From Nitrospirota bacterium (GTDB lineage Bacteria; Nitrospirota; Nitrospiria; JACQBW01): 64,000 bases of DNA. Below, in pieces: positions 4,223-33,924 of the stretch. Where the stretch lies: positions 85,684 to 149,683 of the forward strand of contig JACQBW010000008.1 in NCBI GenBank assembly GCA_016194305.1. Reading direction: 5' to 3'. A program made the translations under genes and the position numbers. The notes under the pieces were generated by a model that did not search any database, had not been told where the DNA came from, and saw only the letters and a program-made list of their open reading frames with translations. Every line of letters starts with the position of its first letter. The stretch's first letter is position 1.

Positions 4223-4246
4223 TTGTTTGTAATAGGAGAATGTTGC

Positions 4247-5500
4247 ATGAAGGCATGTATCATAGTACCCCCCTCTGAATTTTTAGATGATGATAAAGTA
4301 TTTCCGGCTTTGGGGCCCTGGTATATCAAGCGATATGTCGAAGAGAACTCCATTCACCAGGTCGATGTTTTGACAAATCCTCCGTTCGCCTATTTAGAAA
4401 GATATGATGTGGTTGGATTCAGCGTGACAACGCCTCAATATAATTATGTCGACAGGATTTTGAAGGATCTTCCAACAGGGATGACCACCGTATTGGGAGG
4501 TCCACATTGTCGTACTTATACGGTTGAACCGGGGACTTTCACACATGTCATTAGAGAAGATGGATGCAAACCTTTTCTGAATATCTTAAACGGGAATGAA
4601 CCTGGTAAAGAATCGGACGACAATGACCAGCTTCCCCACAGAGACATGACCTACCATGAATATAAATATGTTTTAGATGGCCGAAAATCGACTAATGTAA
4701 TTACCAGCAGAGGGTGTCCTCTATTGTGTTCTTTTTGCGAACATGCGAGGACGCCGGGTAGATTTAAAAGCAAAAAAGCGGTTGCGAAGGAAATTCAGGA
4801 ATGCAAGGATCTGGGGTTTGAAGGAGTGATGTTTTTTGATGACCTGTTCTGTTTGAATACCCAGCGGGTACGGGATATGTGCGAGGTCATCAAGCCACTC
4901 GATATCAAATTTAGATGTTTTGCACATGCTTTAAGTTTCAACAGGAAAATGGCAGAGCTCCTGGCAGGTGCGGGATGTGTTGAAATCGGTTTTGGCGCTG
5001 AGCATGCGTCGCAAAAAATATTGGATAACGTCAATAAAAAGACCAAAGCGATCCAGAACTATCAGTTGATCGAAAGAGCACATGAGTTTGGTCTCCGAGT
5101 CAAAGCATTCCTGATGATCGGACTCCCAGGAGAAGACCATGAGACCGTTAAAGAGTTGGAACAATTTGTCTTGAACTCCAATGTTGATGACTTCGACCTC
5201 TGTGTTTACTATCCTTTTGTCGGTACCGAGATTGCTGACTATCCTGAGAAGTTTGACATACAGATCAAAGATGATCAGAGTGGGGCCTATTATAAAGGAA
5301 AGCTGGGGTCCTCTTCGGTAATCGTTCGGACAGAAGCACTATCTTCTGAAGAGATCAAATATTGGCAAAAGAGGATCTATTCTCATAATAAGAGATGGAA
5401 AGGGGGAATGAAGTCCACGCTTGGAATTAAAATTGTGGATGAACCCTCTGCCGCAGATGTTTGCAGTTCCAGTAATGTGAATGGGTTCCCAGCAATTTAG
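4247..5500 (+). CDS. Radical SAM enzyme with an N-terminal B12-binding-like domain, inserted between flgH and flgI
   Basis: CPLLCSFCEH matches the CxxxCxxC radical-SAM cluster motif. The likely start is the ATG at 4247, preceded by an AGGAG ribosome-binding site; the ORF track begins at a TTG at 4223. The ORF directly abuts the flgH stop. Confidence 0.7.
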   Translation: MKACIIVPPSEFLDDDKVFPALGPWYIKRYVEENSIHQVDVLTNPPFAYLERYDVVGFSVTTPQYNYVDRILKDLPTGMTTVLGGPHCRTYTVEPGTFTHVIREDGCKPFLNILNGNEPGKESDDNDQLPHRDMTYHEYKYVLDGRKSTNVITSRGCPLLCSFCEHARTPGRFKSKKAVAKEIQECKDLGFEGVMFFDDLFCLNTQRVRDMCEVIKPLDIKFRCFAHALSFNRKMAELLAGAGCVEIGFGAEHASQKILDNVNKKTKAIQNYQLIERAHEFGLRVKAFLMIGLPGEDHETVKELEQFVLNSNVDDFDLCVYYPFVGTEIADYPEKFDIQIKDDQSGAYYKGKLGSSSVIVRTEALSSEEIKYWQKRIYSHNKRWKGGMKSTLGIKIVDEPSAADVCSSSNVNGFPAI

Positions 5501-6952: not shown

Positions 6953-6980
6953 TAAAGTTTTTTGTCAGATCGGCCGATAA
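6953..6980 (+). promoter_or_regulatory. Sigma-28 (FliA) promoter upstream of flgM
   Basis: TAAAgttt, then GCCGATAA after a 16-nt gap, about 75 nt upstream of flgM. This is a near-perfect class-III consensus. Confidence 0.7.
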
Positions 6981-8060: not shown

Positions 8061-9710
8061 ATGTCCAGCATTTCGAATATTTTCAACATAGGCGTCTCGG
8101 CACTGCTGGCGAATCAGAATGCGTTGGCGATTACCTCCAATAATATTGCTAACGTCAATACGCCGGGATATTCCAAAGAAACCGCATTTTTTAATGAGAC
8201 GACCCCAGTCAACGGTAATCCTGGTCAAATAGGAACGGGCGTTCAAATTGCCCAGATACAGAGAATGGTTAATCAGTTTCTCAATAATCAGGTGACGCAG
8301 GAGCAATCGAGTCTAGGTCAATACGACATTATGCAGAGCACTCTTTCGAACGTTCAGAGTTTTTTCAGCGACAGTCAGGGAACGGGTATTAATCAAGCCC
8401 TATCCGATTTCTTCAATGCTTTTCAGGATGTATCAAACAATCCCCAATCCCTCCCGGCGCGTCAGGCACTGATTCAAAAGGGAAATATACTTTCACAGAT
8501 TTTCAGTAACACCAGTGCCAACTTGACGCAGATTGAGAATAATCTGAATAGCCAGATCAGCGGAGCGATCAACGATGCAAATGCTTTGGCGGGAGAAATC
8601 GCCGGATTAAATGGTCAAATTGCCCGTGCTCAACTTTCAGGGCAATCTCCCAATGCACTGCTTGACCAGAGAGATCAGTATCTCAATCAGTTGGCTTCCA
8701 AGTTAAATATTAGTACCTTTGTTGATGCCTCTGGCCAGGTCACGGTCATGGTGGGAGGAGGGAATCCGCTTGTAGAAGGAAATACTGCCCACTCTTTAAC
8801 GGGAGTAGCCAATCCGGACAATTCCGGATATTTCGATGTGGCCTATGCGCCGGCGAATGGGACTCCGATTACATTGAACGGATCGATTACCGGCGGCAAT
8901 ATCAAAGGACTTCTTGATTTAAGAGACACGACGGTGTCGGGAGACCTTACCCAGTTAGATATTCTAGCGGCTGGAATTATTAATGAAGTCAATCAACAGC
9001 ACCAGGCGGGCTACGGGCTGGACGGAACCACCGGAAATCTCTTCTTTTCTCCCCTTTTGCCCAATGCGACCGCTTTGAGTACGAATGCCGGAACAGCAGT
9101 TGTGACTGCATCGGTTGTGACCCCGGCATCGTTGACTTTTAATCCCTATCAGCTCACTTTCTCCGGCGGGAATTATACTTTGACCAATACGGTGAGTGGA
9201 GCCTCCACATCGGCCGCTTACGGAGGCGCGACAACCGTCACTTTCGAGGGATTTCAGATCGCCATCGGTGCGGGAGCGGCAAATGGAGATATTTTCAATC
9301 TCAGTGAAACCCAGGGGGTCTCGGTGAGCATGACGGTTTCACTGACCGATCCCAATAAGGTTGCCGCGGCATCCGCTCTGGCTGGACTTCCCGGAGATAA
9401 CGGGAATGCGCTTTTTCTCTCCGGAATATCCGGAAAGGCGATTACGGCGTTTGCCGGCGAGACGGTTCAAGGATATTATAGTAATCTAACGGGAACCATC
9501 GGATTGCAGGCACAATCCGCGCAGAGGAATTTTTCTGCGGAAAAGATTTTGAAAGGCCAATTGTTTAGCCAACAGCAAGAGGTTTCGGGCGTTTCACTCG
9601 ACGAAGAGATGTCGAATCTGATCAATTTTCAAAATGCCTATGCAGCCTCTGCCAAACTGATTACGATGGCCGACGAAATTTTTCAAACCTTGATTGCTAT
9701 GAAACATTAA
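8061..9710 (+). CDS. flgK: Flagellar hook-associated protein 1 FlgK
   Basis: N-terminal rod/hook family motif (ITSNNIANVNTPGYS) and C-terminal FlgK block. Confidence 0.9.
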   Translation: MSSISNIFNIGVSALLANQNALAITSNNIANVNTPGYSKETAFFNETTPVNGNPGQIGTGVQIAQIQRMVNQFLNNQVTQEQSSLGQYDIMQSTLSNVQSFFSDSQGTGINQALSDFFNAFQDVSNNPQSLPARQALIQKGNILSQIFSNTSANLTQIENNLNSQISGAINDANALAGEIAGLNGQIARAQLSGQSPNALLDQRDQYLNQLASKLNISTFVDASGQVTVMVGGGNPLVEGNTAHSLTGVANPDNSGYFDVAYAPANGTPITLNGSITGGNIKGLLDLRDTTVSGDLTQLDILAAGIINEVNQQHQAGYGLDGTTGNLFFSPLLPNATALSTNAGTAVVTASVVTPASLTFNPYQLTFSGGNYTLTNTVSGASTSAAYGGATTVTFEGFQIAIGAGAANGDIFNLSETQGVSVSMTVSLTDPNKVAAASALAGLPGDNGNALFLSGISGKAITAFAGETVQGYYSNLTGTIGLQAQSAQRNFSAEKILKGQLFSQQQEVSGVSLDEEMSNLINFQNAYAASAKLITMADEIFQTLIAMKH

Positions 9711-9719
9711 CGAGGGACC

Positions 9720-10601
9720 ATGCGGGTTACCAATCAGATTATTTACGACAACTTAATCGAGTATCTTCAGAGAAATAACGATGCACTTTTCCGGCCTCAG
9801 CAGGAGATTGCCACAGGGAAAAAGATAATTCTGCCATCGGATGATCCTCAGGGTAATTCTCAGGTGGTTAATCTTGATGCGATGGGAGGAAAACTCAATC
9901 AATATTTGACGAACCAGAATGTGGCACAGAGTTTTATGGAAGCAACGAATACCGTATTGGATGAAGCTTCTAAAATCCTGGCAGATATCAAGAATGTTGC
10001 ACTGAACGCCGCTTCAGGCTTAAGTTCTCAAAATCAACAATACGATTCAACACTCCTTGCCGCGGATTTACAATCTCTTCTTGATGTGGCCAACACCCAG
10101 TATCAAGGAGAGTATCTTTTTGCCGGATTTAAAAATGATACTTCTGCATATAATAATGCCGGGGTCTACCAAGGGGATGGAGGGCAGATAGGGGTGCAGA
10201 TTGCACCGGGAGCTACGATTCAAAGAAATCTTGCGGGACAGGATGTTTTTGGCACCTCGGCGGGAGGGGTCGATATTTTCGCTACAATCCAGGCGCTTCA
10301 AACGGCAATTACAGGGAATAATTTGGCTGGAGTTCAGGCGACGATATCTGCTCTTGATTCGGCGCGGAAGCAGATTCTAAATAGCCAGGGAATCTTAGCG
10401 ACCCGTGTGACAAATCTCCAAACGACCCGAGATTATGTCAAGAGACTTTCGGAGACAACCACAAACCTTCTATCCCAAACTCAAAGTGTCGATATGAACG
10501 CCGTCATTACGGAGCTTAATCAGCAGATGACCTCACTGCAGGCGGTTCAGGCGATGGCTTCAAAAGTCATGAATCTTAGCCTCGTCAATTTTCTGAAATA
10601 A
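9720..10601 (+). CDS. flgL: Flagellar hook-associated protein 3 FlgL
   Basis: Flagellin-like N and C termini; follows flgK. Confidence 0.8.
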   Translation: MRVTNQIIYDNLIEYLQRNNDALFRPQQEIATGKKIILPSDDPQGNSQVVNLDAMGGKLNQYLTNQNVAQSFMEATNTVLDEASKILADIKNVALNAASGLSSQNQQYDSTLLAADLQSLLDVANTQYQGEYLFAGFKNDTSAYNNAGVYQGDGGQIGVQIAPGATIQRNLAGQDVFGTSAGGVDIFATIQALQTAITGNNLAGVQATISALDSARKQILNSQGILATRVTNLQTTRDYVKRLSETTTNLLSQTQSVDMNAVITELNQQMTSLQAVQAMASKVMNLSLVNFLK

Positions 10602-10717
10602 AATAGGTTCTCCTTTTCTATCGTCATATTTCCTTCATGCTGTGACAACTTCATGACGCTTTAAAGCTCAATTCTCTTTTTCCCCCTCATTATTGATTAG
10701 GATTAACTTAAAAGTAC

Positions 10718-10735
10718 TTGGCAAGGTATTTGCAT
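10718..10735 (+). promoter_or_regulatory. Sigma-54 promoter upstream of the glycosyltransferase genes
   Basis: cTTGGCAAggtatTTGCAT with exact -24/-12 spacing, about 70 nt upstream of the 10805 start. Confidence 0.65.
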
Positions 10736-10804
10736 AACTACTATACGAGTTCAAGAAATAATGGAGTGTTGAATGCCAATACGAATAGAGGGTGAACCGT
10801 ACTT

Positions 10805-13408
10805 ATGAAAATTAAATCCAGAAACACACTTTCTTGCACGTGCGGAAGTGGTAAGAAATTTAAAAAATGTTGCGGAGCAATCCAAAAGAATGTGACAGAA
10901 ACCGGGACTGACTTAGAGATATCTGAAAAATTCAAAAATGCAATCGTCTATCATCAAGCAGGAGAATTGGATAAAGCGGAAGCGTTTTACAGGGAAATAC
11001 TGGAGGCAGATCCGCGACAACCGGATGTCCTTTTTAATCTCGGAGGCATTTGTGAAGGAAAGGGCGAACTGGGTAAAGCAAAGTCCTTTTATGAAAAAGT
11101 CCTTGAGAATAGACCTGACTACTATACCGTATATAACAATTTGGGGGCTGTTTATTACAAGGAAGAAAGTTATTTAGAAGCGCGGAGTTATTACGAAAAG
11201 GCCCTGTCGTTTAAACCTGATTTTGCCGAAGCTTGGAACAATCTCGGTATGGTATTTAAATCAGAGGGAAAGTTCAAGGAGGCCGAAGAATTCATTAAGA
11301 AGGCGATCTTTCTCAAGCCTGACTATGCCGATGCGTATAACAATTTGGGTGCAACCTATTTAGGACACGGAGATAGGAGCAAGAAGGAAACAGCGATAGC
11401 CTGTTTAGAAAAGGCAATAAAGATAAATCCCCGTCACGCCGGAGCGTACAATAATATTGGAAATATTTTAAGATTTGATGAAAGGCTCGAAGAGGCAGAA
11501 TCTTATTATTTAAAGGCAATCACAATTGACCCTAAGTTTCCCGATGCCTACTCCAATTTGGGAAATATTTACGAGCTTCAGGGAAGGGCTGAGGAGGCGG
11601 TTGAGAAATATAGAAAGACACTTGAACTGGCACCGAAACATGTCATTGCTCAGAGCAATCTTCTTCTTGCTCTAAACTATTCAGAAACTAGCGTTCCCAG
11701 TGCAGTCTACTCTGAACACCTTCTTTTCGAAAAGAATTTCGGGGAACAATTTAAGTCGGAAACGAAGCCTTATCTGAACGATCTTTCTCCGGATCGGAAA
11801 TTAAAAATCGGTTATATTTCTCCCGATTTCAGGACTCATTCGGTGGCGTACTTCATCGAGCCGGTCCTGGCCAATCACGACAGTCAGAAATTTGAGATTA
11901 TCGGTTATTCCAACAGTCAGGCATGGGATCAAATGACCAGGCAACTTCATTCTTATGTTGACAAATGGCGCAATATTTCGGGCATTCCGGTCCATATCGT
12001 AGACGAAATGATCAGAATGGATCAGATTGATATCTTAATTGACTTGAGCGGACATACGGCAGGAAACCGACTGCTTGTTTTTGCCCGGAAACCCGCCCCC
12101 GTTCAGGTAACATGGCTTGGCTATCCCAATACCACTGGTTTAAGGACGATGGATTATCGAATTACCGATCGTTTTGCAGATCCAGTCGGCGTGGCGGAAC
12201 AATTTCATACAGAACAACTCATCAGGCTCCCTAAATCATTTTCATGTTATCGACCGCCAGACGAAGGGCTAGAAGTGGAAGATACTCCGGCCATAGAAAA
12301 TGGATTTATTACATTTGGTTCATTTAATAATTTTTCCAAAGTTACACTGAGAGTTATTCAGTTGTGGGCTAAGGTTTTAAGATCTGTTCCTGATTCTCGC
12401 CTGATTTTGAAAACCGGTGGATTAAATGAAAAAAGTCTAAGAGACAGGGTCTACGATCAATTTGCATCTATGGGAGTCTCAGCCAATAGACTTGAGTTAT
12501 TGGGAAGAGACGCCTCACGGGAGGAACATTTTAGACAATATCGCCGTCTGGATATCGGATTGGATCCTTTTCCCTATAACGGGACGACGACAATTTGCGA
12601 GTCACTTTGGATGGGAGTGCCGGTGGTGACTCTTGAAGGACAAACGCATGCCGGCCGTGTGGGGGTGAGTCTTATGAATACCCTGGAGCTGACCGAATTA
12701 ATCGCCCGATCGGAAAACGAATATGTGGATATTTGTGTGCGTCTTGCAAATGACCTGGTGCAATTAAGTCAGTTACGGGCGGGGATGCGCTCGAGGATGA
12801 AGGCTTCTCCTTTAATGAATGAGAAGGAGTTTACTCAATACCTGGAAGACGCATACAGAAATATCTGGAAAGATTATGTGCGAAGACAGGGCCTGATGTC
12901 TGAGCGTTCTGAAATGAAAAATGTGGCTGATCCTGAAGTCAATGTCAGGATAGACGAGGCTCAAAATCTCCTGAAAGAAGGACGTTTAGACCAGGCAGAA
13001 ATTCTTTATCGGGAAATCTTGACGAACCACTCAAAGAATCCAACCGTGCTCCATGACCTGGGAATTGTTGCGTTCCATAAAGGACAATTGGCCCGGGCCG
13101 CGGATTTCTTTATCAAAGCATTGGCATTTAAGCCCGATTATGCCACCGCTTATAATAATCTTGGTGCGGTCTGTGATGAAATGGGGCGCCAGGAAGATGC
13201 CAAGGCGTGTTATGAGATGTCGCTGGTCTTGGTGCCGAATTATGCCGAAGCCCACCACAATCTGGGAGTACTGTACAAGAAACAGGGAATCATCAATATG
13301 GCGATGGACTTTTTCCAGAAGGCTCTGGATTTAAATCCCGAATATCTTGAAGCACGCAAGAATATAGAAGAGTTAAAGAGGATGACATCGGAGCCCTCAT
13401 CCGTTTGA
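10805..13408 (+). CDS. TPR-repeat protein with an N-terminal SEC-C metal-binding motif and an O-GlcNAc-transferase-like (GT41-type) C-terminal domain; candidate flagellin O-glycosyltransferase
   Basis: CTCGSGKKFKKCCG matches the SEC-C motif. There are at least 8 TPR units, and the C-terminal half resembles a GT41 catalytic region (GYISPDFRTHSVAYF..., GSFNNFSKVT...). Confidence 0.7.
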   Translation: MKIKSRNTLSCTCGSGKKFKKCCGAIQKNVTETGTDLEISEKFKNAIVYHQAGELDKAEAFYREILEADPRQPDVLFNLGGICEGKGELGKAKSFYEKVLENRPDYYTVYNNLGAVYYKEESYLEARSYYEKALSFKPDFAEAWNNLGMVFKSEGKFKEAEEFIKKAIFLKPDYADAYNNLGATYLGHGDRSKKETAIACLEKAIKINPRHAGAYNNIGNILRFDERLEEAESYYLKAITIDPKFPDAYSNLGNIYELQGRAEEAVEKYRKTLELAPKHVIAQSNLLLALNYSETSVPSAVYSEHLLFEKNFGEQFKSETKPYLNDLSPDRKLKIGYISPDFRTHSVAYFIEPVLANHDSQKFEIIGYSNSQAWDQMTRQLHSYVDKWRNISGIPVHIVDEMIRMDQIDILIDLSGHTAGNRLLVFARKPAPVQVTWLGYPNTTGLRTMDYRITDRFADPVGVAEQFHTEQLIRLPKSFSCYRPPDEGLEVEDTPAIENGFITFGSFNNFSKVTLRVIQLWAKVLRSVPDSRLILKTGGLNEKSLRDRVYDQFASMGVSANRLELLGRDASREEHFRQYRRLDIGLDPFPYNGTTTICESLWMGVPVVTLEGQTHAGRVGVSLMNTLELTELIARSENEYVDICVRLANDLVQLSQLRAGMRSRMKASPLMNEKEFTQYLEDAYRNIWKDYVRRQGLMSERSEMKNVADPEVNVRIDEAQNLLKEGRLDQAEILYREILTNHSKNPTVLHDLGIVAFHKGQLARAADFFIKALAFKPDYATAYNNLGAVCDEMGRQEDAKACYEMSLVLVPNYAEAHHNLGVLYKKQGIINMAMDFFQKALDLNPEYLEARKNIEELKRMTSEPSSV

Positions 13409-13426
13409 AATAATAAGGAGTTTAGG

Positions 13427-16400
13427 ATGGAAAGATGGCAATTAAGGACCCCAGTCGCTTTTATGATATTCAATCGACCTGATACGACCCAATTCGTGTT
13501 CGAGGAGATTCGTAAATCAAAACCACCCAAGCTGTTAGTCATTGCTGACGGTCCACGTCCCGGGAAACCAGACGAAGCAGAGAAATGTCGTGCGGCAAGA
13601 GCAATTATTCAGCGCATCGACTGGAAATGCGAAGTATTAACAAACTACTCTGATATCAATTTAGGTTGCAAGAGACGCGTCTCAACCGGTTTGGATTGGG
13701 TTTTTGAATTGGTAGAGGAGGCGATAGTACTGGAAGATGATTGTCTCCCTGAACCCAGCTTCTTTCGATTTTGTGAAGATCTGCTCAAAAAATATCGTCA
13801 TGATGAACGGATTGCCCAAATCAGCGGGGATAATTTTCAATTTGGAGAGAACGGGACCGAATACAGTTATTATTTCTCGAGAATTAATCATTTGTGGGGA
13901 TGGGCCTCTTGGCGAAGAGCCTGGAAAAAGCATGATGTATCGATGTCGAAATGGCCTGAAGTAAAGAGCAAGACAGGTTTAATTGACTGGCTTGGAAATC
14001 GGGAACTGGCCAATTTCTGGGAAGGGGCATTTGATAGCGCTTTCCTGGGAAAGATCGATACCTGGGATTTTCAATGGGTTTTCTCTTCCTGGTTGCATAA
14101 CATGTTAACGATTCTCCCCAATCAGAATTTAATTTCAAATATCGGTTTCAGGGAGGACGCCACCCACACCAAAGGTCAGAGCCTGTTTGCGAACATGAAG
14201 ACAGCTCCAGTTCTTTTTCCTCTCAAGCACCCTCCGGAGATTATTCGAAATGTTGCAGCGGATTCTTTTACCGAAAGGATGATGTTTCTCCCGAAAGCAC
14301 CGGTTCAAATGGAGTCGAATCCAAAATCGGATTCTCCTGTGGTCTGTAAAGTCTGTTCATCTAGATCAAGATTCCTAAAAAATGCATCCATGTTAAAGGT
14401 TCACTTGGTAGATTATTTTAAATGTGAAAACTGCGGATTTATTCAGACAGAAGAGCCATTTTGGTTAAATGAGGCTTATTCCAGTGCAATTACGAGCAGT
14501 GATACGGGTCTGGTGAGAAGAAATATTGAGCTTTCGAAAATGTCGAAATTGATTTTATCTAATTGTTTTGAGAAAAACGCCCAATTTGTCGATTATGGCG
14601 GAGGATACGGTCTTTTTGTCCGTTTGATGAGGGACTATGGTTTTGATTTCTACTGGATTGACCAACATTGTCCAAATCTTTTTGCCAAGAACTTTGAAGC
14701 AGATTGCCAAAACGGGAAGCGGTACGAGGTATTGACGGCATTTGAAGTTTTTGAACATCTGGTTAATCCCATGGATGAGATAGAAAAAATGCTGAAACTT
14801 TCAAATACCATTTTCTTTAGCACAGAACTGATTCCCTCTCATCATCCGAAACCGGGAGAATGGTGGTATTTTGGGCTTGAGCATGGCCAGCATATCTCTT
14901 TCTATACTCTGAGAACTTTGGATGCGATTGCCAGAAAATTTAATCTGAACCTCTATTCTAATGGGACTTCGCTACACATCTTAACGGACAAAAATCTTAA
15001 AGGTCCCTTGGAGTTTTCCGAGGGGATCTGGAAATCATTGCAAAGTCATGATATTGAGTGGTATGGACCTCACCGGATGGACAAGATTGTATTGGGCGTA
15101 TCCGGAGGAAACGAAACTCTCCAAAGTGTTCAAGCCATAATTCATTCCGCACGAACCTTTCTTCAGAATGGACACCTCGATGAGGCAGAAAAAATCTACA
15201 GAGACATTCTGAATGTGCATTCTCAAAACAGCGAAGTTTTGCATGATCTTGGAATTATTGCATTTCAAAAAGGCAAACTTGTTTCGGCATCCGATTACTT
15301 TCTTAAGGCCTTAAATATAAAACCCGATTTTGCAATAGCCCATAATAATCTGGGGGTTGTCTTGAATGAAATGGGGAAGAAGGAAGAGGCTAAAATCTGT
15401 TATGAAGTGGCTATTTCTTTAAAACCGGATTACGCAGAAGCTTATTTTAACCGAGGCATGATTTCCAGAGATCAGGGCCGTCATGACGAAGCGATGATCT
15501 CATTTCAAAAGGCAGTCGGGTTTAAGTCGGACTATGTTGAAGCACTCAAAGAACTGGAAGAATTAAAAAAGAAAGTTCAAAGTCCGAGATTGCTAAAACC
15601 AGTGCCGGCGATAAGTCCGGGCATGGATCCGGGTTTGAAAAAAAGAATGGCTTTTGTGGATTTGGCCTTTCATCAAAGAACAAAAAGCACGCTGGAATTG
15701 ATTGAGGTTTTCCAACGCCATTTCCAGGTCGACATATACTGGGACAGCGGAAATCTTGATTTTCAGCAGATTGCCAGACAAAGCTATGATACGGTCGTTT
15801 TTTTTCAAAAGATCTATGGGATGAGGAAATTAGATTCGCTTAACGCTAAAAATATTATTTTTATCCCGATGTATGATGATGTGATGGGAATCACAGATGC
15901 ATACTGGAGGCAGTTTGGTCATGTTCAGTTCCTTAGTTTCTCAAGAACGCTTCATGAGAAACTTCTTCACCTGGGGTTAAGATCTCGGCATATTCAATAT
16001 CATGTTCCATCCCCAAAGCTTCCAAGTCCAGAGCCGTCCTGTAAGGGCCTCTCCGGGTTTTTCTGGCAAAGGACCAACTATATCCGGTGGAGTACGATCA
16101 AGATCCTGATTCAGAATGTTTCGATTGAAAAATTTCACCTCCACTCCGCGGTCGATCCCCCGAACCATGTTTTTGAAAAACCTTCAGATGAAGATATCAA
16201 AAAATACAGCATCACCATCAGTGATTGGTTTCCCGGAAAGGAGGAGTATTTGACTCTCGTTGCCTCCGCCAAACTTTTCTTTGCCCCAAGGCCCTTCGAG
16301 GGAATAGGGATGTCTTTCCTGGAGGCTATGGCCATGGGAAAATGTGTGATTGCCCCGGATCTACCCACGATGAATGAATACATTCAGGATGGCGAAAATG

Positions 16401-16549
16401 GTCTTTTGTATGACCCGAAAAATCCCGTTCCCCTTGATTTTAGGCAGGCTGATAATATAGGAATGAAGGCGAGAGTTTCGGCTGAAGAAGGGTATCGTAC
16501 CTGGAAAGAGGCCGAAAAAGGTTTAATTCAATTTATAACGGATCCGTAA
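13427..16549 (+). CDS. 1040-aa multidomain protein: GnT-I-like GT-A domain, zinc-ribbon plus class-I SAM C-methyltransferase, TPR repeats, and a GT-B (GT4-like) domain; candidate flagellin glycan assembly enzyme
   Basis: GT-A DxD-like motif LEDDCLP and WGWASWRRAW; zinc ribbon CKVCSS...CENCGF followed by VDYGGGYGLF (SAM binding); TPR block; C-terminal GT4 motif EGIGMSFLEAMAMGKCVIAPD...ENGLLYD. Confidence 0.7.
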   Translation: MERWQLRTPVAFMIFNRPDTTQFVFEEIRKSKPPKLLVIADGPRPGKPDEAEKCRAARAIIQRIDWKCEVLTNYSDINLGCKRRVSTGLDWVFELVEEAIVLEDDCLPEPSFFRFCEDLLKKYRHDERIAQISGDNFQFGENGTEYSYYFSRINHLWGWASWRRAWKKHDVSMSKWPEVKSKTGLIDWLGNRELANFWEGAFDSAFLGKIDTWDFQWVFSSWLHNMLTILPNQNLISNIGFREDATHTKGQSLFANMKTAPVLFPLKHPPEIIRNVAADSFTERMMFLPKAPVQMESNPKSDSPVVCKVCSSRSRFLKNASMLKVHLVDYFKCENCGFIQTEEPFWLNEAYSSAITSSDTGLVRRNIELSKMSKLILSNCFEKNAQFVDYGGGYGLFVRLMRDYGFDFYWIDQHCPNLFAKNFEADCQNGKRYEVLTAFEVFEHLVNPMDEIEKMLKLSNTIFFSTELIPSHHPKPGEWWYFGLEHGQHISFYTLRTLDAIARKFNLNLYSNGTSLHILTDKNLKGPLEFSEGIWKSLQSHDIEWYGPHRMDKIVLGVSGGNETLQSVQAIIHSARTFLQNGHLDEAEKIYRDILNVHSQNSEVLHDLGIIAFQKGKLVSASDYFLKALNIKPDFAIAHNNLGVVLNEMGKKEEAKICYEVAISLKPDYAEAYFNRGMISRDQGRHDEAMISFQKAVGFKSDYVEALKELEELKKKVQSPRLLKPVPAISPGMDPGLKKRMAFVDLAFHQRTKSTLELIEVFQRHFQVDIYWDSGNLDFQQIARQSYDTVVFFQKIYGMRKLDSLNAKNIIFIPMYDDVMGITDAYWRQFGHVQFLSFSRTLHEKLLHLGLRSRHIQYHVPSPKLPSPEPSCKGLSGFFWQRTNYIRWSTIKILIQNVSIEKFHLHSAVDPPNHVFEKPSDEDIKKYSITISDWFPGKEEYLTLVASAKLFFAPRPFEGIGMSFLEAMAMGKCVIAPDLPTMNEYIQDGENGLLYDPKNPVPLDFRQADNIGMKARVSAEEGYRTWKEAEKGLIQFITDP

Positions 16550-16618
16550 AAGAAGATTAAGAAAGAAAGTAGATCATAACTTATTGAAATTATTATGTTT
16601 AGTATTTTAAAATTCGGC

Positions 16619-16646
16619 TAAAGTTTCTCAGGGGTTTCTCCGATAA
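16619..16646 (+). promoter_or_regulatory. Sigma-28 promoter upstream of flagellin
   Basis: TAAAgttt, then tCCGATAA after a 16-nt gap; the spacer length matches the flgM promoter. Confidence 0.65.
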
Positions 16647-16792
16647 GTATTGTTGAGGCAGAAGATCAAGATCGGAAATGAGGTGAAAGCTAGAAAAAGA
16701 GATAGATCGAATGCCTTGTTTTTGAACAAAAATACTTAATGAACCCAAATTGGCGAGAATTGCCAATTCAATCCTAGAAAAGGAGAAACACC

Positions 16793-17740
16793 ATGGCAGA
16801 TATTTCATTAACCGCTGGTATGCGGGCGTCGGTTCTTTCGTTAGAGACAACGTCTTCGTTATTTGATACGACCCAATTACGGTTATCTACCGGACGAGCA
16901 GTCAACTCGGCATTGGACGATCCGATCAAATATTTTTCGGCTCAGAATAATAATTTTACGGCAAGTGGTTTAAACAATCTTAAATCAAGCATGAACGAAG
17001 CGTTACAGGTGGTGTCGGCTGCCAACAATGGTATCACCGCTGTGACCTCCTTAATCAAAAACGCAATCGCCATTGCTCAACAGGCTCAAGCGGCGTCTGC
17101 GACGGATTATACAACTCAGGCCACGCTCCTGACCCAATATATCGGGATTTTGAGCCAGATCAACTTCGCCGGTGCGGATTCGAAATACGGCGGGAAAGAT
17201 TTGATCAATAATGGAACGGCATATAGTTCCTCTACCGCGACAGCTTCAGACAGTGTGACGGTGACTTTCAGCACAACCAACACCAACTCCGCCATTACCA
17301 TTTCAGGTGTCGATTCCACGATTGTAGGTCTTGGCCTATCAGTTGGAGGTTTTACGCTTGCAACGGGGAATGAAACGACCGGAACGGGTGCGGTGACCAC
17401 AGGGGCAACCCTATCCTGGACCACAACCGCCAGCTCAAACAATAGCTGGGCGACTGCGGCGAATATATCGACAGATATTACGAAATTGAACAGCGCGTTA
17501 ACCACCCTTCAGACAACCGCAAAGACCCTATCGACCAGCAACGCGGTGATTCAGGCCAGAATCGATTTTACCGCCAATATGGTCAGTACCTTACAGCAAG
17601 GGTCTGATAAGCTGACACTGGCGGATATGAATCAGGAAGGAGCCAACATGTTGTCCCTGCAGACACAGCAGGCATTGGCTACAAACTCGATGAGATTGGC
17701 CTCTCAAGCCTCCCAGAGCGTCTTGAGATTATTCTCATAA
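16793..17740 (+). CDS. fliC: Flagellin (alpha-proteobacterial-type, with a Ser/Thr-rich central region)
   Basis: RLSTGRAVNSALDDP in the N-terminal D0/D1 segment and a conserved C-terminal LSLQTQQALATNSMRLASQASQSVL. The central region is S/T-rich. Confidence 0.85.
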   Translation: MADISLTAGMRASVLSLETTSSLFDTTQLRLSTGRAVNSALDDPIKYFSAQNNNFTASGLNNLKSSMNEALQVVSAANNGITAVTSLIKNAIAIAQQAQAASATDYTTQATLLTQYIGILSQINFAGADSKYGGKDLINNGTAYSSSTATASDSVTVTFSTTNTNSAITISGVDSTIVGLGLSVGGFTLATGNETTGTGAVTTGATLSWTTTASSNNSWATAANISTDITKLNSALTTLQTTAKTLSTSNAVIQARIDFTANMVSTLQQGSDKLTLADMNQEGANMLSLQTQQALATNSMRLASQASQSVLRLFS

Positions 17741-17752
17741 AACTAACTCTTG

Positions 17753-17791
17753 AATCAGGCGGGGGATTTTGTCCTCCGCCTGATTTATTTG
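17753..17791 (+). terminator. Rho-independent terminator after flagellin
   Basis: AATCAGGCGGGGGA ttttg TCCTCCGCCTGATT followed by TATTT. Confidence 0.7.
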
Positions 17792-17801
17792 GAGTTCTAA
17801 G

Positions 17802-18182
17802 ATGACATCGATTAAAAATATCGAACTCGGAATTCTGAACATCAATCCATTGGGAAAGGTTATTATCCCCAATCCTGTTCAAGCCAGGGATCAGAAAGCC
17901 GGTGAAAATCTGAGCGATAATAAAATTTTTGCTCCTGATATGATTAACGATACGGTTGACCTCGTTTCAAAAAGCCGACTGATCTTCCCCATTAAAGATA
18001 CGACGGGCGCAATACTTGAAAAGATGAAGGCTCAACTTGAGGCTGGAATAAGAGGAACAGAACCATTGGATCCTGCCGCCGCAAACGCCAAAAGTTTTCA
18101 GATCGGGACGGAACTGACACGCCAGCCTGATAAGAATCTGGTACAGACCCGTTTTGATTTTCTACGTTTCCTGATTGGATAG
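17802..18182 (+). CDS. Hypothetical protein co-transcribed with flbT and flaF
   Basis: 126-aa ORF directly abutting flbT; no family recognised. Confidence 0.4.
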   Translation: MTSIKNIELGILNINPLGKVIIPNPVQARDQKAGENLSDNKIFAPDMINDTVDLVSKSRLIFPIKDTTGAILEKMKAQLEAGIRGTEPLDPAAANAKSFQIGTELTRQPDKNLVQTRFDFLRFLIG

Positions 18183-18575
18183 ATGCCACTTAAGGTTACC
18201 TTAAAGCCGAAGGAACGTCTTTTCATCAATGGCGCGGTTATTTTCAATAATGAAGCGAACCGGATTAGCCTGATTGTCGTTAACGACATACCGATTTTAA
18301 GAGAAAAAGATATTTTAACCGAAGAGAGTGCGAATTCCCCCTGCAAACGGATCTATCTTTCCGTTCAGTTGATGTATATGGATAAGGAACGGCTGGCCGA
18401 ATATCAGAAGAAATATTGGAGGCTGGTCGGGGAGGTCATCAAGGCGGCACCAAGCACCACAAAAATGATTCATAAAATTAGCGAGCAGATTTTAATAGGG
18501 CAATTTTATAAAGCTTTAAAACTTTCTCATAAATTAGTTCATTACGAAATGGAGTTAATCAATGCCGGTAAATAA
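18183..18575 (+). CDS. flbT: Flagellin synthesis regulator FlbT
   Basis: N-terminal MPLKVTLKPKERLFINGAVIFNN...NDIPILREKDIL resembles Caulobacter FlbT. Confidence 0.7.
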   Translation: MPLKVTLKPKERLFINGAVIFNNEANRISLIVVNDIPILREKDILTEESANSPCKRIYLSVQLMYMDKERLAEYQKKYWRLVGEVIKAAPSTTKMIHKISEQILIGQFYKALKLSHKLVHYEMELINAGK

Positions 18576-18948
18576 TCCCTTCAGTGCCTATCAAGAGGTG
18601 GCGAAAAAGACCCTAGATGGTCCCGCTCTTGAAGCCTATGTATTGAATAGAGCCGCTCAGCTCCTGATTGAGTGTAAAAATCAGTGGAATGAGTCCGGAC
18701 ATCAAGAACGGCTTGATAAGGCGCTCGGATATAACCAGAAGTTATGGACCTTTTTTCAGGTGGAGCTCGCCAATCCGGAACATTCTCTTCCGAAAAAGAT
18801 ACGTGAAGATATCTTAAGCCTCTCCATTTTTATTGATAAAAGAATTTATGAAGTCATAACAGAACCGGATCCTGGCAAACTGGAGGTGATGATCAATATT
18901 AACCGAAATATTGCCAACGGCCTTCAGGGGAACGCGATCGGGTCCTGA
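18562..18948 (+). CDS. flaF: Flagellin synthesis regulator FlaF
   Basis: About 128 aa; pattern like FlaF (…KLWTFFQVELANPEHSLPKKIREDILSLSIFIDKRI); overlaps flbT. Confidence 0.65.
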   Translation: MPVNNPFSAYQEVAKKTLDGPALEAYVLNRAAQLLIECKNQWNESGHQERLDKALGYNQKLWTFFQVELANPEHSLPKKIREDILSLSIFIDKRIYEVITEPDPGKLEVMININRNIANGLQGNAIGS

Positions 18949-18973
18949 ATTTAATCGATCGAGTTCCACGGCT

Positions 18974-19023
18974 AGCTCTTCTATCGGAGTAATCATTATC
19001 TCCATAGTCAAGAGCTTTTTTTA
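18974..19023 (+). terminator. Rho-independent terminator after flaF
   Basis: Imperfect hairpin AGCTCTTCTATCGGAG...CTCCATAGTCAAGAGCT followed by TTTTTTT. Confidence 0.6.
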
Positions 19024-19052
19024 TGCTAAAATTAAAGATAGAAATCCTGTTG

Positions 19053-19075
19053 AACTGTTTAATTGTTAAACAGTT
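19053..19075 (+). promoter_or_regulatory. Inverted repeat AACTGTTTAA-ttg-TTAAACAGTT upstream of the response-regulator/PilZ operon
   Basis: 10-bp perfect arms; shares the AACTGTT/AACAGTT half-sites with the flgK upstream palindrome. Confidence 0.4.
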
Positions 19076-19157
19076 AATTTGGGAAAAATAACAATGTTCC
19101 AACTCCACAATTCAACAAACTAACGATACAACATTCCAAAGTTAGGCCCTTAAAAAA

Positions 19158-19724
19158 ATGACTAACTATCCTAAAGACAAATTCAGAGTTCTTATCGTGG
19201 ATGATGAAGAGGGCCCCCGGAGGGCGATTGAAGCGGCATTGTACCGTGAAAAAGATCTTGAAATTAGAACGGCCCGAAGCGGGGAGGAGGCACTCCACAG
19301 TTTTGATGAGGGTGCATTCGATCTTGTTCTGACTGATATCCGGATGCCGCAAATGGATGGGATAGATCTGCTTCGAAGGATCCACGAACGTTCTCCCGAT
19401 ACCCTGGTAATCTTGATTACCGGATATGGAACACTTAATTCCGCCATTGATGCGATTCGGGCGGGAGCGTATGATTACCTGACCAAACCGTTTAAAGTGG
19501 AGGAGCTCTGTATCGTTGTCGACAGAGCCATTGAAAAAATCAAACTTCTGCGGGAGAACGGTAGATTGCTCGGAGAGCTCACCGCGCTTTTTGAAAAAAT
19601 AAAAAAGAATATCGTGGAGACGGAATCCGCCGAAAAGGGGGTCCGAAACCTGGAGTTGTTACAGGATGTCAGGCGTCAGCTTTCACAAATTTATGTAAGG
19701 AACGGTGGAAATGGAAAAGGATAA
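19158..19724 (+). CDS. CheY-like single-domain response regulator with a C-terminal coiled-coil tail
   Basis: LIVDDEEGPRR...LVLTDIRMPQMDG...YLTKPF: the receiver-domain Asp and Lys residues are present. Confidence 0.8.
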   Translation: MTNYPKDKFRVLIVDDEEGPRRAIEAALYREKDLEIRTARSGEEALHSFDEGAFDLVLTDIRMPQMDGIDLLRRIHERSPDTLVILITGYGTLNSAIDAIRAGAYDYLTKPFKVEELCIVVDRAIEKIKLLRENGRLLGELTALFEKIKKNIVETESAEKGVRNLELLQDVRRQLSQIYVRNGGNGKG

Positions 19725-20283
19725 CCGCAGCTATCATCGTATTCCAACGGAATGTCCCGCACTTTACCGGATCGTCGACCCTGCCAAGAAAGAAGACGCC
19801 AAAGGGAAATGGGAGAGACTGGCCCATCTTTCACCGATCTCTGCCTTTGAAGGAATGGAGAGCAGCCACCGTCAGACAGAACATGTGGACCCCTTTGTTC
19901 TGGAGCTTTTTCTCCGTCTCGACTGGCGAATGAATTACATGATTAAGATGATGACCCAGAAAGAAGATCTGGAACTCTTTCCCTGCCGGGCGGTCATTGT
20001 CGATATCTCCGCGTCAGGAATGAAACTTTACGGTACTGAAAGTCCTCCGAATGGAGCGCGTATGGAATTTCAATTTGTCTTGCCAATTATCCCTTTCAGG
20101 GAACTATTTTTGGTCGGTAAAGTGATCAGATCGGTCCCGAAGGAGCTTGCAAGCAATCCCGATTTCAAGTATGAAATTGGAATTGAATTTGAGGGGTTAA
20201 AAGAGATGGACCGGGAACATCTGATTCATTATGTCGTCAAAAGAGAACTTCAGTTGCGGCAAGGACGTGAAAAAATCCGCTAG
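19705..20283 (+). CDS. PilZ-domain c-di-GMP-binding protein
   Basis: RLDWR (RxxxR) 30 aa before DISASGMKL (DxSxxG); overlaps the response-regulator gene by 20 nt. Confidence 0.6.
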   Translation: MEMEKDNRSYHRIPTECPALYRIVDPAKKEDAKGKWERLAHLSPISAFEGMESSHRQTEHVDPFVLELFLRLDWRMNYMIKMMTQKEDLELFPCRAVIVDISASGMKLYGTESPPNGARMEFQFVLPIIPFRELFLVGKVIRSVPKELASNPDFKYEIGIEFEGLKEMDREHLIHYVVKRELQLRQGREKIR

Positions 20284-27601: not shown

Positions 27602-29062
27602 TCACACTTCACCCTTCACCAGGTTTTCTCGATTGTCCTGGGAAGATTCTGCCTCCTCCAGAGGGCAACTTTTACCTACCCCTGGATCATTCGGTTGAAT
27701 AAATCGTCCCGTTTCACGATAATCTCTTAACTTGTTTCGCACCGTTCTGATGCTAATCCCCAGTATTTTTGCGGTTTGGGTTCTATTTCCCCCTGATTTT
27801 TCAAGGGTTTTCAAAATCAATTCTCTTTCCGCCTCCCAGACGGTTTGAGGCATGACATGCGATTCAACTTTTTTAGAAGGATCCGATTGATCTTCCTCAA
27901 ACATCAAATGCTCCGGGAAAATAATGCCGTTTTCAGCAAGAAGAAACGCACGCTCCATGACATTTTCAAATTCTCTGACGTTTCCCTGCCATTTTTTTGA
28001 CATCAGGTGATTCAGAGCTTCCGGAGAAAGGGACATGGAAGGGCTCTCTTTTTTGCAGAAAAGTTTTTGTTGAAAGTATTCAAAGAGAATAGGGATATCG
28101 TTCAGCCGGTTCCGGAGTGGGGGCAACCTAAGCGGAAAGACATTGAGACGGTAATAAAGGTCTTCTCGAAACCGTCCTGATTTCACCTCTTCCCAGATCG
28201 GGCGATTCGTTGTGGCAATGACCCGGATATCTAATGGAATCGGCTCTTTCCCTCCCAGGAGTTCCACTTCGCGTTCTTGTAGAATTCGGAGAAGTTTCGC
28301 CTGGAGGTGAAGCGGCATTTCACTCACTTCGTCGAGCAGAATCGTACCGGTATGGGCCAGTTCAAATTTTCCGGGTTTTTTGGAGACGGCGCCTGTGAAA
28401 GCCCCCTTTTCATACCCGAAGAGTTCGCTCTCCAGGAGTGTTTCAGGGACCGCGGCGCAGTTGATCGCGATGAAAGGACGGTGTGCTCTGGGGCTGAATT
28501 CATGAATATGGCGAGCCAGGAGTTCTTTTCCGGTGCCGCTCTCTCCCTCGATCAAAATCGTTGCCTGGCTTGCCGCGACGACTTCAGCCAGTTTCAGGAT
28601 TTTGAGCATGGCCGTATCCTGGCTGATCATCCGTTTTTTTCCTTTGGGAAGGCTCTTGATTCGGGAGATCGGATGCACCGCGTCTCCTTCCTGGAATGCT
28701 CTGCGAATCGCCGATTCCAGTGTCTCCTGCGTGAAAGGTTTAACCAGAAAATCAAAAATGCCCGACTTCATCGCATCAACCGCCTTGTCGATTGTCCCAT
28801 AAGCAGACATCATAATCACCGGGATCTTGATTTGAGATTTCTGGATCTCCTGAAAGACTTCCAGACCATTCATCTGAGGCAGTTTAAAATCGGTCAGGAT
28901 CGCCCCGATCGGTCTATCTTTGAAAAGTTGAATCCCTTCCTCTCCCCGTGAAGCGGTGAAGACGGAGTATCCCATCTGCTGGATAGATGCGGCCAGTGCG
29001 GACCGCATTTCGGGTTCATCGTCGATGACCAGAATTGATCGAGACTTCGTCTCCGTACTCAT
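27602..29062 (-). CDS. Sigma-54-dependent response regulator (NtrC family; FlrC/FleR-like)
   Basis: Receiver domain (VIDDE...[11 protein letters not shown]), AAA+ sigma-54 activator core ([28 protein letters not shown]) and a C-terminal Fis-type helix-turn-helix. Confidence 0.9.
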
Positions 29063-32484: not shown

Positions 32485-33924
32485 TTAAGGCGTGATCTCT
32501 TCCGTCTGTTTCGAATGTTTGTCGAGCCGTTTCAAACGTTCAACCAGGGTGGTCCGATTCAGCTGAAGGAGTTGTGCGGCCCTGTTTTTCACCCCTTTTG
32601 ATTTGACAAGGGCCTGATTCAGCAGATGGACTTCAAACTCGGTGACCACCTTGGTGAAATTAATCCCTTCATCCGGAAACTGAAAAAGTGAAGAGCCGGA
32701 TGCAGGCTCAATTCTTTTGTATTTATCGGGAATATCTTCCGGTGAAATGGCACCTTCGTGCCGTAAGGTAATCATTCTTTCCATCAGATTTTCCAGTTCG
32801 CGGATATTGCCGGGCCAGCTGTAAGCCATCAGAATCTTGAGCGCCTCAGGCGTCAAGCCTTGAATGGTTCTCCCTTTTTTCGAGTTGAATTTGGAGAGAA
32901 AGTGATCGATTAAAAGAGGAATATCTTCTTTATGTTCTCGCAGGGCGGGGACATAGATCGGAATGACGTTTAACCGGTAGAAAAGATCTTTACGGAATTT
33001 TTTTTCAACCACCGCTTCTTCAAGATCCTGATTGGTTGCGGCAATAATCCGGACATCGACGTGGATCGAACGGTTCCCTCCTACCCGTTCAAACTCCCGT
33101 TCTTGCAATACCCGGAGGAGCTTTACCTGCAAGGGAAGCGGGAGTTCGCTAATCTCATCGAGAAAAAGCGTTCCGCCATGGGCAAGCTCAAACCGGCCGA
33201 GTCTCGAAGAGACCGCGCCGGTAAAGGCCCCCTTTTCATGTCCAAAAAGTTCGCTTTCCAGAAGCGCTTCCGGAATCGCGCCGCAATTGATCGGAATCAG
33301 CGGCTTGTCCTTCCGGGGGGAGTTAAAATGAATGGTCTTGGCGATGACCTCCTTCCCTGTACCGCTCTCTCCCTGAAGGAGGACGGTGCTGTCGCTGTCC
33401 GATACCTTTTCAATCATTTCAAATACTTTTTGCATCGGGGGAGAGTTTCCGATGATATTTTCAAATCGGTATTTTTCCTGGACGCTCTTCTGGAGAATCA
33501 GGTTTTCATGTTTGAGGCGATAATATTCCAGCGCCTTCTTGACGAGCGCCAGAACGAGATCAATTTGGAAGGGCTTGGGGAGATAATCGTAAGCTCCCGC
33601 TTTTAACGCATCCACCGCTGATTCAATCGTTCCAAAAGCCGTCATCATGATGACCACCGCTTCAGAATCGATCTTTCGAATCTCCTTTAACAGGTCAATT
33701 CCGGTCATTCCGGGGAGATGGTGGTCGATCAGGTATAGATGGAAGGGGGTCCGTTTCGCCATTTTTAGCGCTTCTTCGCCTTCGGCTAGCGAGACGGTTT
33801 GAAATCCGGAAGTATTGAGAAGCATCTCGAGCATCTTGCGAACCGATGCGTCATCTTCGACAATCATGATTTGAGAAGTCGGCATGGGCGTCTCCTTCCA
33901 AGAGGTAAAACGGTTATTAGTCAA
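32485..33924 (-). CDS. Second sigma-54-dependent response regulator (NtrC family; FleQ/FlrA-position)
   Basis: Receiver domain with conserved Asp, AAA+ sigma-54 core ([14 protein letters not shown]) and a Fis helix-turn-helix. Confidence 0.9.
   Translation of the reverse strand: MTNNRFTSWKETPMPTSQIMIVEDDASVRKMLEMLLNTSGFQTVSLAEGEEALKMAKRTPFHLYLIDHHLPGMTGIDLLKEIRKIDSEAVVIMMTAFGTIESAVDALKAGAYDYLPKPFQIDLVLALVKKALEYYRLKHENLILQKSVQEKYRFENIIGNSPPMQKVFEMIEKVSDSDSTVLLQGESGTGKEVIAKTIHFNSPRKDKPLIPINCGAIPEALLESELFGHEKGAFTGAVSSRLGRFELAHGGTLFLDEISELPLPLQVKLLRVLQEREFERVGGNRSIHVDVRIIAATNQDLEEAVVEKKFRKDLFYRLNVIPIYVPALREHKEDIPLLIDHFLSKFNSKKGRTIQGLTPEALKILMAYSWPGNIRELENLMERMITLRHEGAISPEDIPDKYKRIEPASGSSLFQFPDEGINFTKVVTEFEVHLLNQALVKSKGVKNRAAQLLQLNRTTLVERLKRLDKHSKQTEEITP

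Follow-up and report, generated by a model that had tools for sequence, protein, structure and literature searches.

Glycosylation of flagellin bears on motility, on how the filament assembles and on its recognition by phages and hosts; to our knowledge, few studies have looked at it beyond Proteobacteria and Firmicutes. In Pseudomonas aeruginosa and P. syringae, the genes responsible form islands between flgL and fliC, in which a first glycosyltransferase (GT) attaches a deoxyhexose to Ser/Thr and other enzymes then lengthen and modify the chain; these islands use GT families and accessory genes other than those described below, and carry their own sugar-nucleotide biosynthesis genes. Here we analyzed a 64,000-nucleotide stretch of a Nitrospirota genome (contig JACQBW010000008.1, positions 85,684 to 149,683; hereafter the window), in which two large genes, ORF1 and ORF2, lie between flgL and a flagellin gene. 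We consider it likely that they form a flagellin glycosylation island, in which both enzymes decorate flagellin with a small methylated sugar chain.

By analogy, the closest mechanistic model is FlmG of Caulobacter crescentus, whose tetratricopeptide repeat (TPR) domain binds flagellins and whose GT-B domain glycosylates them (PMC7591256). FlmG acts in the cytoplasm before export, in a bacterium that also uses FlbT/FlaF and expresses its glycosylation genes ahead of the flagellins. As judged from domain layout, ORF1 and the C-terminal half of ORF2 resemble FlmG in being soluble, with TPRs N-terminal to a C-terminal GT-B domain. In contrast, FlmG transfers pseudaminic acid supplied by the Pse pathway, whereas no nonulosonic-acid (NeuB/Pse-type) genes were seen in the window, its remaining 40 kb included, and the present locus encodes two enzymes with four catalytic domains. 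A second parallel comes from the flagellin islands of Enterobacteriaceae, which encode GT41 proteins (SPINDLY family, COG3914), most of them with a fused methyltransferase domain (De Maayer & Cowan 2016, PMC4875605). Both there and here, a GT41 enzyme and an S-adenosylmethionine (SAM) methyltransferase are encoded beside the flagellin gene, with strain-variable content, and both systems are predicted from genomes only (PMC4875605). Unlike in those islands, the methyltransferase studied here is carried by a second protein together with GT13-like and GT4 domains, the host belongs to the Nitrospirota, the flagellin is of the FlbT/FlaF type, and the sigma-54 promoter is conserved. The Enterobacteriaceae survey moreover assumed N-acetylglucosamine (GlcNAc) as the sugar, a donor that the SPINDLY-like active site of ORF1 does not favor (PMC4875605).

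Outside flagellar systems, the cyanobacterial GT41 enzyme Ogt/OgtA glycosylates a type IV pilin encoded nearby (PMC9306852), and thus offers another bacterial cytoplasmic GT41 encoded beside the gene of a surface-filament subunit. It differs in that the substrate is pilin, not flagellin, and that Synechococcus Ogt uses UDP-GlcNAc; the GT41 domains of cyanobacterial pilin loci are only 29-35% identical to ORF1. Listeria GmaR had been cited in an earlier note on this DNA as an example of a GT41-type flagellin glycosyltransferase. It is indeed a TPR-containing cytoplasmic enzyme of flagellin O-glycosylation, but it is not of the GT41 type: a GT domain of ~180 residues comes first, followed by TPR, linker and antirepressor domains (PMC9638930). 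ORF1 and ORF2 differ from this TPR-containing anti-repressor, which is not arranged as TPR-then-GT41, in both domain order and domain sizes.

The upstream border of the island is flgL (9720-10601, +), which encodes the hook-filament junction protein (Pfam Flagellin_N, 69.6 bits) and lies 3′ of flgK (8061-9710; FlgK domains by Pfam). It is followed after 203 nt by ORF1 (10805-13408, +; 867 aa), a soluble SPINDLY-like GT41 protein, then after 18 nt by ORF2 (13427-16549, +; 1040 aa), a soluble protein combining a GT13-like GT-A domain, a SAM methyltransferase, a TPR module and a GT4-type GT-B domain, and after a further 243 nt by the flagellin gene (16793-17740, +; 315 aa). The 18-nt spacer contains an AAGGAG ribosome-binding site (RBS), and ORF2 is translationally coupled to ORF1. 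No transmembrane segment was predicted in either protein. The genes, the GT and TPR domains, the sigma-54 motif and the flagellin that the earlier note had described are thus all present where it placed them, and its picture of two large TPR/GT genes between flgL and the flagellin gene holds. The two genes form a sigma-54-type operon whose place immediately 5′ of the flagellin gene is conserved, and they encode soluble proteins with protein-binding TPR modules.

The flagellin itself gives weak Pfam matches (Flagellin_N, 33 bits), and its identity is also backed by the FlbT and FlaF genes downstream and by termini that are conserved in relatives. Its hypervariable center (residues ~120-250), the proposed acceptor, consists of Ser and Thr to 38.5%, and its best 130-residue stretch reaches 40%, the highest value in the window, compared with 25% in the best stretch of the next protein and a median whole-protein value of 11%; the unusual Ser/Thr content noticed earlier is therefore borne out.

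We compared this arrangement with six syntenic loci from metagenomes and one Nitrospiria metagenome-assembled genome (MAG), named L001 to L006, all of which keep the order of flgK and flgL. The series flgL, GT41, variable genes, flagellin, a 126-aa ORF, FlbT and FlaF recurs in five of them (L001-L003, L005, L006); in L004, flgL and GT41 are kept and the contig ends before any flagellin. What lies between GT41 and flagellin changes from locus to locus, with five different layouts among the six: an extra Methyltransf_21 gene in L001 and L002, a Methyltransf_21 domain fused to GT41 in L005, a shorter ORF2 lacking the methyltransferase in L006 and, in L004, genes for an NTP-transferase, a 4,6-dehydratase-type enzyme and a C-methyltransferase after GT41. 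The ORF2 orthologue of the closest relative, L003, appears as two gene calls that overlap (439 + 606 aa, 8698-11821), which indicates a frameshift, whether an assembly error, a pseudogene or a phase variant. The flagellins vary too: the longer ones (window, L003, L005) carry extra Ser/Thr-rich insertions that are missing from the shorter ones (L001, L006).

The placement of GT41 and the variable accessory genes across relatives, together with the outlying Ser/Thr content of the flagellin, speak for flagellin as the substrate, and they also bear on the possibility that the two enzymes make up a cytoplasmic O-glycosylation system of general or regulatory purpose, or that they target another flagellar component (hook-associated, rod, FlaF/FlbT), the adjacency of flagellin then reflecting co-regulation only. 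Such a role would suit an enzyme whose catalytic domain is ~55% identical (hand count from the alignment) to that of SPINDLY (SPY), which has hundreds of intracellular substrates, and it would suit the abundance in bacteria of GT41/SPY-like proteins, mostly outside flagellar loci (7636 matches at E≤1e-30); FlgK is moreover fairly Ser/Thr-rich, with 25% in its best stretch. However, the position directly upstream of the flagellin gene is conserved across diverged loci while the accessory genes vary in an island-like manner, the variable domain of flagellin is by far the most Ser/Thr-rich segment, and there is a precedent for a GT41 encoded beside a filament-subunit gene acting on that very subunit. 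We regard a general system or another flagellar target as unlikely, and O-glycosylation of flagellin, which is well supported by context though not proven, as most likely.

To place the island in a wider context, we scanned metagenomes with the flagellin alignment, which returned 79 more distant loci, of which the 52 of at least 6 kb were assessed. GT41 genes are found at 10 of these 52 flagellin loci, and at 8 of the 12 that have both FlbT and FlaF; the GT41 enzymes of these eight are 46-53% identical to ORF1 in the catalytic domain. The modules of ORF2 were found in none of these loci. These frequencies, together with the GT41 and methyltransferase islands catalogued in Enterobacteriaceae (PMC4875605), contradict the earlier view that the combination is uncommon: a flagellin island with GT41 and methyltransferase is an already known kind of system, here built from unusual parts. 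Its new features are the host phylum, the conservation of the sigma-54 promoter, an active site of the SPINDLY type, a trifunctional ORF2 with a GT13-like domain that matches no Pfam-A or NCBIfam model, and a TPR module common to both enzymes. Searching the literature for a GT41 enzyme shown by experiment to glycosylate flagellin yielded genome-based predictions only. One of the distant loci with GT41, a high-GC metagenome locus (L095, 1987-20793), has flagellin, FlbT and FlaF genes surrounded by five TPR-glycosyltransferases: two carry GT9-like segments, two are GT41 enzymes, of which one has a borderline NodZ-like fucosyltransferase segment, and the fifth is GT2+TPR.

ORF1 starts with a SEC-C type Cys-rich zinc motif (residues 11-24; 10835-10876, +; Pfam SEC-C 24.1 bits, cut-off 20.4), followed by an array of about eight TPRs (residues ~40-290; 10922-11674, +) that matches several TPR families and aligns to the TPR regions of OGT and SPY. 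This array, presumed to be a substrate-binding superhelix, is N-terminal to the GT41 catalytic domain (residues ~320-700; 11762-12904, +), for which the Pfam model Glyco_transf_41 (PF13844) gives 211 bits against a cut-off of 25, and the protein ends with a further four-repeat TPR module (residues 712-850; 12938-13354, +). Its matches in the Protein Data Bank (PDB) are SPINDLY, OGT, TtOGT and XcOGT, of which Arabidopsis SPINDLY is best (E=1e-162, compared with E=1e-123 for human OGT). The preference for SPY over human OGT is seen with the whole protein (546 vs. 417 bits) and is larger with the catalytic domain (378 vs. 198 bits). The earlier description of ORF1 as OGT-like is thus right as to the GT41 family, but the protein is closer to SPINDLY than to OGT and has the Tyr of a small sugar pocket.

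This relationship extends to the active site. Like Arabidopsis SPINDLY, an O-fucosyltransferase (PDB 7Y4I, 8DTF), ORF1 keeps the catalytic Lys, the guanine-stacking His, the Ser/Thr contacts and the pocket Tyr: SPY residues H495, S496, N661, K665, H728, Y744 and T747-749 correspond to H345, S346, N508, K512, H575, Y591 and T594-596 of ORF1, and all of these are invariant across the six orthologues. K512 aligns with the essential phosphate-binding Lys (SPY K665, human OGT K842). In SPY, H495 and S496 serve active-site structure and acceptor orientation, N661, K665 and T748 bind phosphates, H728 stacks on guanine, and Y744, a Cys in OGT, narrows the sugar pocket (PMC9715652). Because ORF1 has a SPINDLY-like active site with all key residues kept, its predicted donor is GDP-linked or small, and the comparison favors a 6-deoxyhexose-like sugar of this kind over UDP-GlcNAc. 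The genes that follow GT41 in L004 hint at a deoxyhexose donor as well. No gmd or fcl gene was found in the window and, given the L004 gene set, a deoxyhexose donor other than GDP-fucose is possible. SPINDLY has 11 TPRs and acts on many substrates as a nucleocytoplasmic regulator of eukaryotes; ORF1, by contrast, combines ~8 N-terminal TPRs with a SEC-C motif and an additional C-terminal TPR module and is encoded in a flagellar operon. We propose ORF1 as the initiating flagellin O-glycosyltransferase. Bacterial SPINDLY-like GT41 enzymes are extremely numerous yet poorly understood, and the main value of the locus is that ORF1 and the adjoining flagellin make a clean candidate enzyme-substrate pair, which could expose the donor and site rules of this branch.

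The SEC-C motif of ORF1, of a kind best known from the C terminus of SecA, is kept in its orthologues with the consensus CxCGSGKK..KCC (CxCGSGKKFKKCC), and also occurs in a few other GT41 proteins (P0126, P0232). A scan of genome contigs with the ORF1 orthologue alignment returned unrelated TPR proteins only, matched through generic TPR peptides (WNNLG[ML]VF, GAYNNIGN).

ORF2 has a more composite structure. Its first domain (residues 1-290; 13427-14296, +) has no Pfam, NCBIfam or PDB sequence match even at E≤10, while its AlphaFold2 model, of high quality (pLDDT 91.1, pTM 0.90), shows a GT-A fold. In a Foldseek search with this model, the top seven hits are all POMGNT1 or GnT-I, enzymes of GT13 (E=6e-11 to 3e-9, probability 1.0, TM ~0.5, 13-17% identity), and the metal-binding EDD motif is present at residues 103-105, within LEDDC (102-106). 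As no sequence profile matches it, we describe this domain as GT13-like in fold and not as a demonstrated member of GT13. A Cys4 ribbon and a class I SAM methyltransferase with a DYGGGYG motif come next (residues ~300-530; 14324-15016, +; Pfam Methyltransf_23, 74.6 bits, residues 379-511), then four TPRs (residues 568-706; 15128-15544, +) and finally a GT-B domain of the GT4 type (residues ~715-1040; 15569-16546, +), which matches Pfam Glycos_transf_1 (PF00534) with 48-50 bits (cut-off 26.4) and has the EX7E motif EGIGMSFLE. The EDD, DxGxGxG and EX7E motifs are all intact. ORF2 packs two GT domains and a methyltransferase domain into one compact enzyme. The earlier note had proposed a profile check for GT families, in which both proteins score (ORF1 with Glyco_transf_41, ORF2 with Glycos_transf_1), and had guessed at GT41, GT13 and GT4; the first and last are found by Pfam, whereas GT13 is supported by fold and not by sequence profile. 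Its view of ORF2 as a TPR/GT protein was correct as far as it went, but missed the methyltransferase and the presence of two GT domains.

The GT13-like domain belongs to a large family, with 15,080 cluster representatives at E≤1e-3, both stand-alone and fused. Its conservation between Nitrospirota and cyanobacteria is unusually high (55-63% identity), and its fusion partners include many different methyltransferases and GTs. Over 521 residues, the GT13-like and methyltransferase pair of ORF2 shares 55% identity with cyanobacterial proteins, in which the pair is joined to many partners, GT41 among them. One cyanobacterial locus (L046, 8001-18286; Geminocystis sp., GCA_026415175.1) has a type IV pilin gene flanked by three GT41 genes and by a gene for an ORF2-like GT13-like/methyltransferase/GT4 protein, a gene set that fits the published GT41 Ogt glycosylating a neighboring pilin (PMC9306852).

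Stand-alone homologues of the GT4 domain, 40-47% identical, are found in Wzm/Wzt ABC-transporter polysaccharide clusters rich in methyltransferases. This location suggests that the GT4 domain acts on sugar acceptors and, since homologues of the ORF2 domains operate in clusters for polysaccharides, a role of ORF2 in extending and methylating the glycan is probable. The same homologues, and the fact that GT-methyltransferase-GT fusions are typical of chain-extending or capping enzymes, could also be taken to mean that ORF1 and ORF2 build a free or lipid-linked polysaccharide, such as a flagellar sheath, a capsule or a methyl-capped O-antigen-like chain. We consider this very improbable, given that neither the island nor its relatives encode an initiating phosphoglycosyl transferase, a flippase, Wzm/Wzt or a polymerase, that both proteins lack membrane segments and have protein-binding TPR modules, and that GT41 is a family with protein acceptors, the characterized members considered here acting on proteins.

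The two enzymes have a TPR module in common, since the four-repeat module at the C terminus of ORF1 is 52% identical over 139 aa to its paralogue in ORF2, compared with 39% identity to the N-terminal TPRs of ORF1 itself. The modules are present in all orthologues, with the signature LHDLGIIAFQxG. Across genomes they share 40-67% identity and do not separate cleanly by host protein, and on this identity matrix we do not claim concerted evolution of the two modules within a genome. The shared module is a candidate for a common docking unit that would bring both enzymes to one partner, for which flagellin, by analogy with FlmG, is the obvious candidate. It suggests how several enzymes may target one protein substrate, and could serve glyco-engineering.

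A further alternative is that one of these TPR proteins mainly regulates or chaperones the synthesis or export of flagellin, moonlighting in the manner of GmaR, with glycosyl transfer secondary or lost. GmaR does join GT and TPR domains with anti-repression, ORF1 has the extra zinc motif and the extra C-terminal module, and flagellin is under post-transcriptional control at this locus through FlbT/FlaF. Yet every catalytic signature is intact and does not vary among orthologues, and the island encodes neither an antirepressor-like domain nor a DNA-binding partner, which leaves little room for such a role, to our mind the most improbable of the alternatives.

We next turn to the control of these genes. 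A sigma-54 type -24/-12 element, TGGCAAGGTATTTGCA (10719-10734, +), with one mismatch to TGGCAC-N5-TTGCW, precedes ORF1, as the earlier note had stated. The pattern has 5 matches across the window where 1.4 are expected, and the count alone is weak evidence. The element is, however, kept as TGGCA-N6-TTGCATA, most bases being identical, in all six syntenic loci, 65-75 nt 5′ of the GT41 start codon, in a spacer whose mean identity across these loci is 44%. It has GG at -24 and GC at -12 with canonical spacing, and activator genes are present in the window. About 60-95 nt further upstream lies an inverted repeat, CGTCA-N27-TGACG (10622-10658, +), the sole match in the window, in which CGTCA, GACAA and TGACG are invariant across the six loci despite otherwise diverged spacers; it is a plausible binding site for a sigma-54 enhancer-binding protein. 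The idea that this repeat is common to the sigma-54 promoter of flgF was rejected, as the flgF promoter, a perfect consensus (TGGCACATCAATTGCA, 794-809, +), does not have it. Two sigma-54 activators of the response-regulator type are encoded in the flagellar cluster (27602-29062, - and 32485-33924, -), one of them next to a histidine kinase gene.

The flagellin gene is preceded by a promoter of the sigma-28 (FliA) type, TAAAGTTT-N12-TCCGATAA (16619-16646, +), which is conserved in L001 and L003. Together with the promoter before flgM (6953-6980, +), it fits TAAAGTTT-N12-(G/T)CCGATAA, a pattern with two matches in the window, before these two genes only, where 0.15 are expected. These motifs and their conservation suggest that the ORF1-ORF2 operon is of the sigma-54 class and that flagellin is a late gene of the sigma-28 class. 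The sigma-54 promoters, the two activators and the sigma-28 promoters together indicate a sigma-54/sigma-28 flagellar hierarchy.

The flagellin leader contains a conserved 9-bp hairpin, AAUUGGCGA-GAA-UUGCCAAUU (16748-16768, +), 11 nt upstream of the RBS, which shows stem-preserving changes in L001 and L003 and is seen in both minimum free energy and centroid folds. The leader as a whole folds no better than shuffled sequences (z = -1.4), and the short hairpin alone stands out; it may be the target of translational control by the FlbT/FlaF pair encoded downstream. The motif TTGGC-N6-GCCAA before the flagellin RBS was considered as a second sigma-54 promoter and discarded, as its GG-to-GC spacing is 10 instead of 12 and it forms a hairpin.

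Based on these data, we propose a model in which the sigma-54 promoter, with an activator probably bound at the inverted repeat, would transcribe ORF1 and ORF2 as one operon. This operon would belong to the middle class of flagellar genes, ahead of the flagellin gene with its sigma-28 promoter. Both soluble enzymes would act in the cytoplasm on flagellin not yet exported. ORF1 would bind flagellin through its TPR superhelix and place a first sugar on Ser/Thr hydroxyls of the variable domain, whereupon ORF2, docked by the shared TPR module, would add two sugars through its GT13-like and GT4 domains and O-methylate the glycan. The glycosylated flagellin would then be exported and polymerized. 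In this model, the order of the genes, the identity of the domains, the conserved catalytic residues and promoter motifs, the synteny and the variability of the island are observed, whereas the acceptor, the donor, the division of labor and its timing, and the docking role of the TPR module are inferred.

Several observations weigh against this model. The host is known from an uncultured MAG alone, and the order in which ORF1 precedes ORF2 is taken from family precedents only. No nucleotide-sugar biosynthesis gene was found in the island or in the whole 64-kb window, and the donor therefore cannot be read from context; dedicated genes of this kind are a common but not universal trait of flagellin glycosylation islands, and among the loci compared here they are present in L004 only. 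No terminator could be found in the spacer that separates ORF2 from the flagellin gene, so that the transcriptional separation of the two units is not established. The modules of ORF2 are common in cyanobacteria, which lack flagella, and thus are not flagellum-specific. Finally, the SPINDLY-like bacterial enzymes TtOGT and XcOGT have no confirmed native substrate (PMC9715652).

A bolder reading, which we offer tentatively and find on balance doubtful, is that ORF1 would O-fucosylate flagellin, or transfer another GDP- or CDP-linked 6-deoxyhexose to it, which would give a bacterial SPINDLY-type GT41 an identifiable native substrate for the first time. ORF1 and ORF2 would then form a portable cassette, a GT41 initiator and a GT13-like/methyltransferase/GT4 extender with shared four-repeat TPR docking, which evolution would have plugged into two surface filaments that are unrelated, flagellin in Nitrospirota and type IV pilin in cyanobacteria, as in L046.

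Downstream of the flagellin gene lie a conserved 126-aa ORF without family match (17802-18182, +) and the genes of FlbT (18183-18575, +; Pfam 133 bits) and FlaF (18562-18948, +; Pfam 106 bits), which by these matches are flagellin translational regulators; the order of the three is the same in L001, L005 and L006. No Pfam match to the Maf (MAF_flag10) domain was obtained in ORF1, ORF2 or their neighbors, and a scan of positions 9500-19500 against Rfam found no known RNA. ORF1 is 100% identical to a protein of a MAG named "Nitrospirae bacterium" at NCBI. Just 3′ of flaF, stand-alone receiver-domain and PilZ-domain proteins are encoded (19158-20283, +), also conserved in L001 and L005, which suggests a c-di-GMP input to the flagellar locus. 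Farther upstream, between flgH and flgI, a B12-binding radical SAM gene (4223-5500, +), with weak similarity to radical SAM methyltransferases of the PhpK/HpnJ type, occupies the same place in L001 and L003 and is absent from L004.

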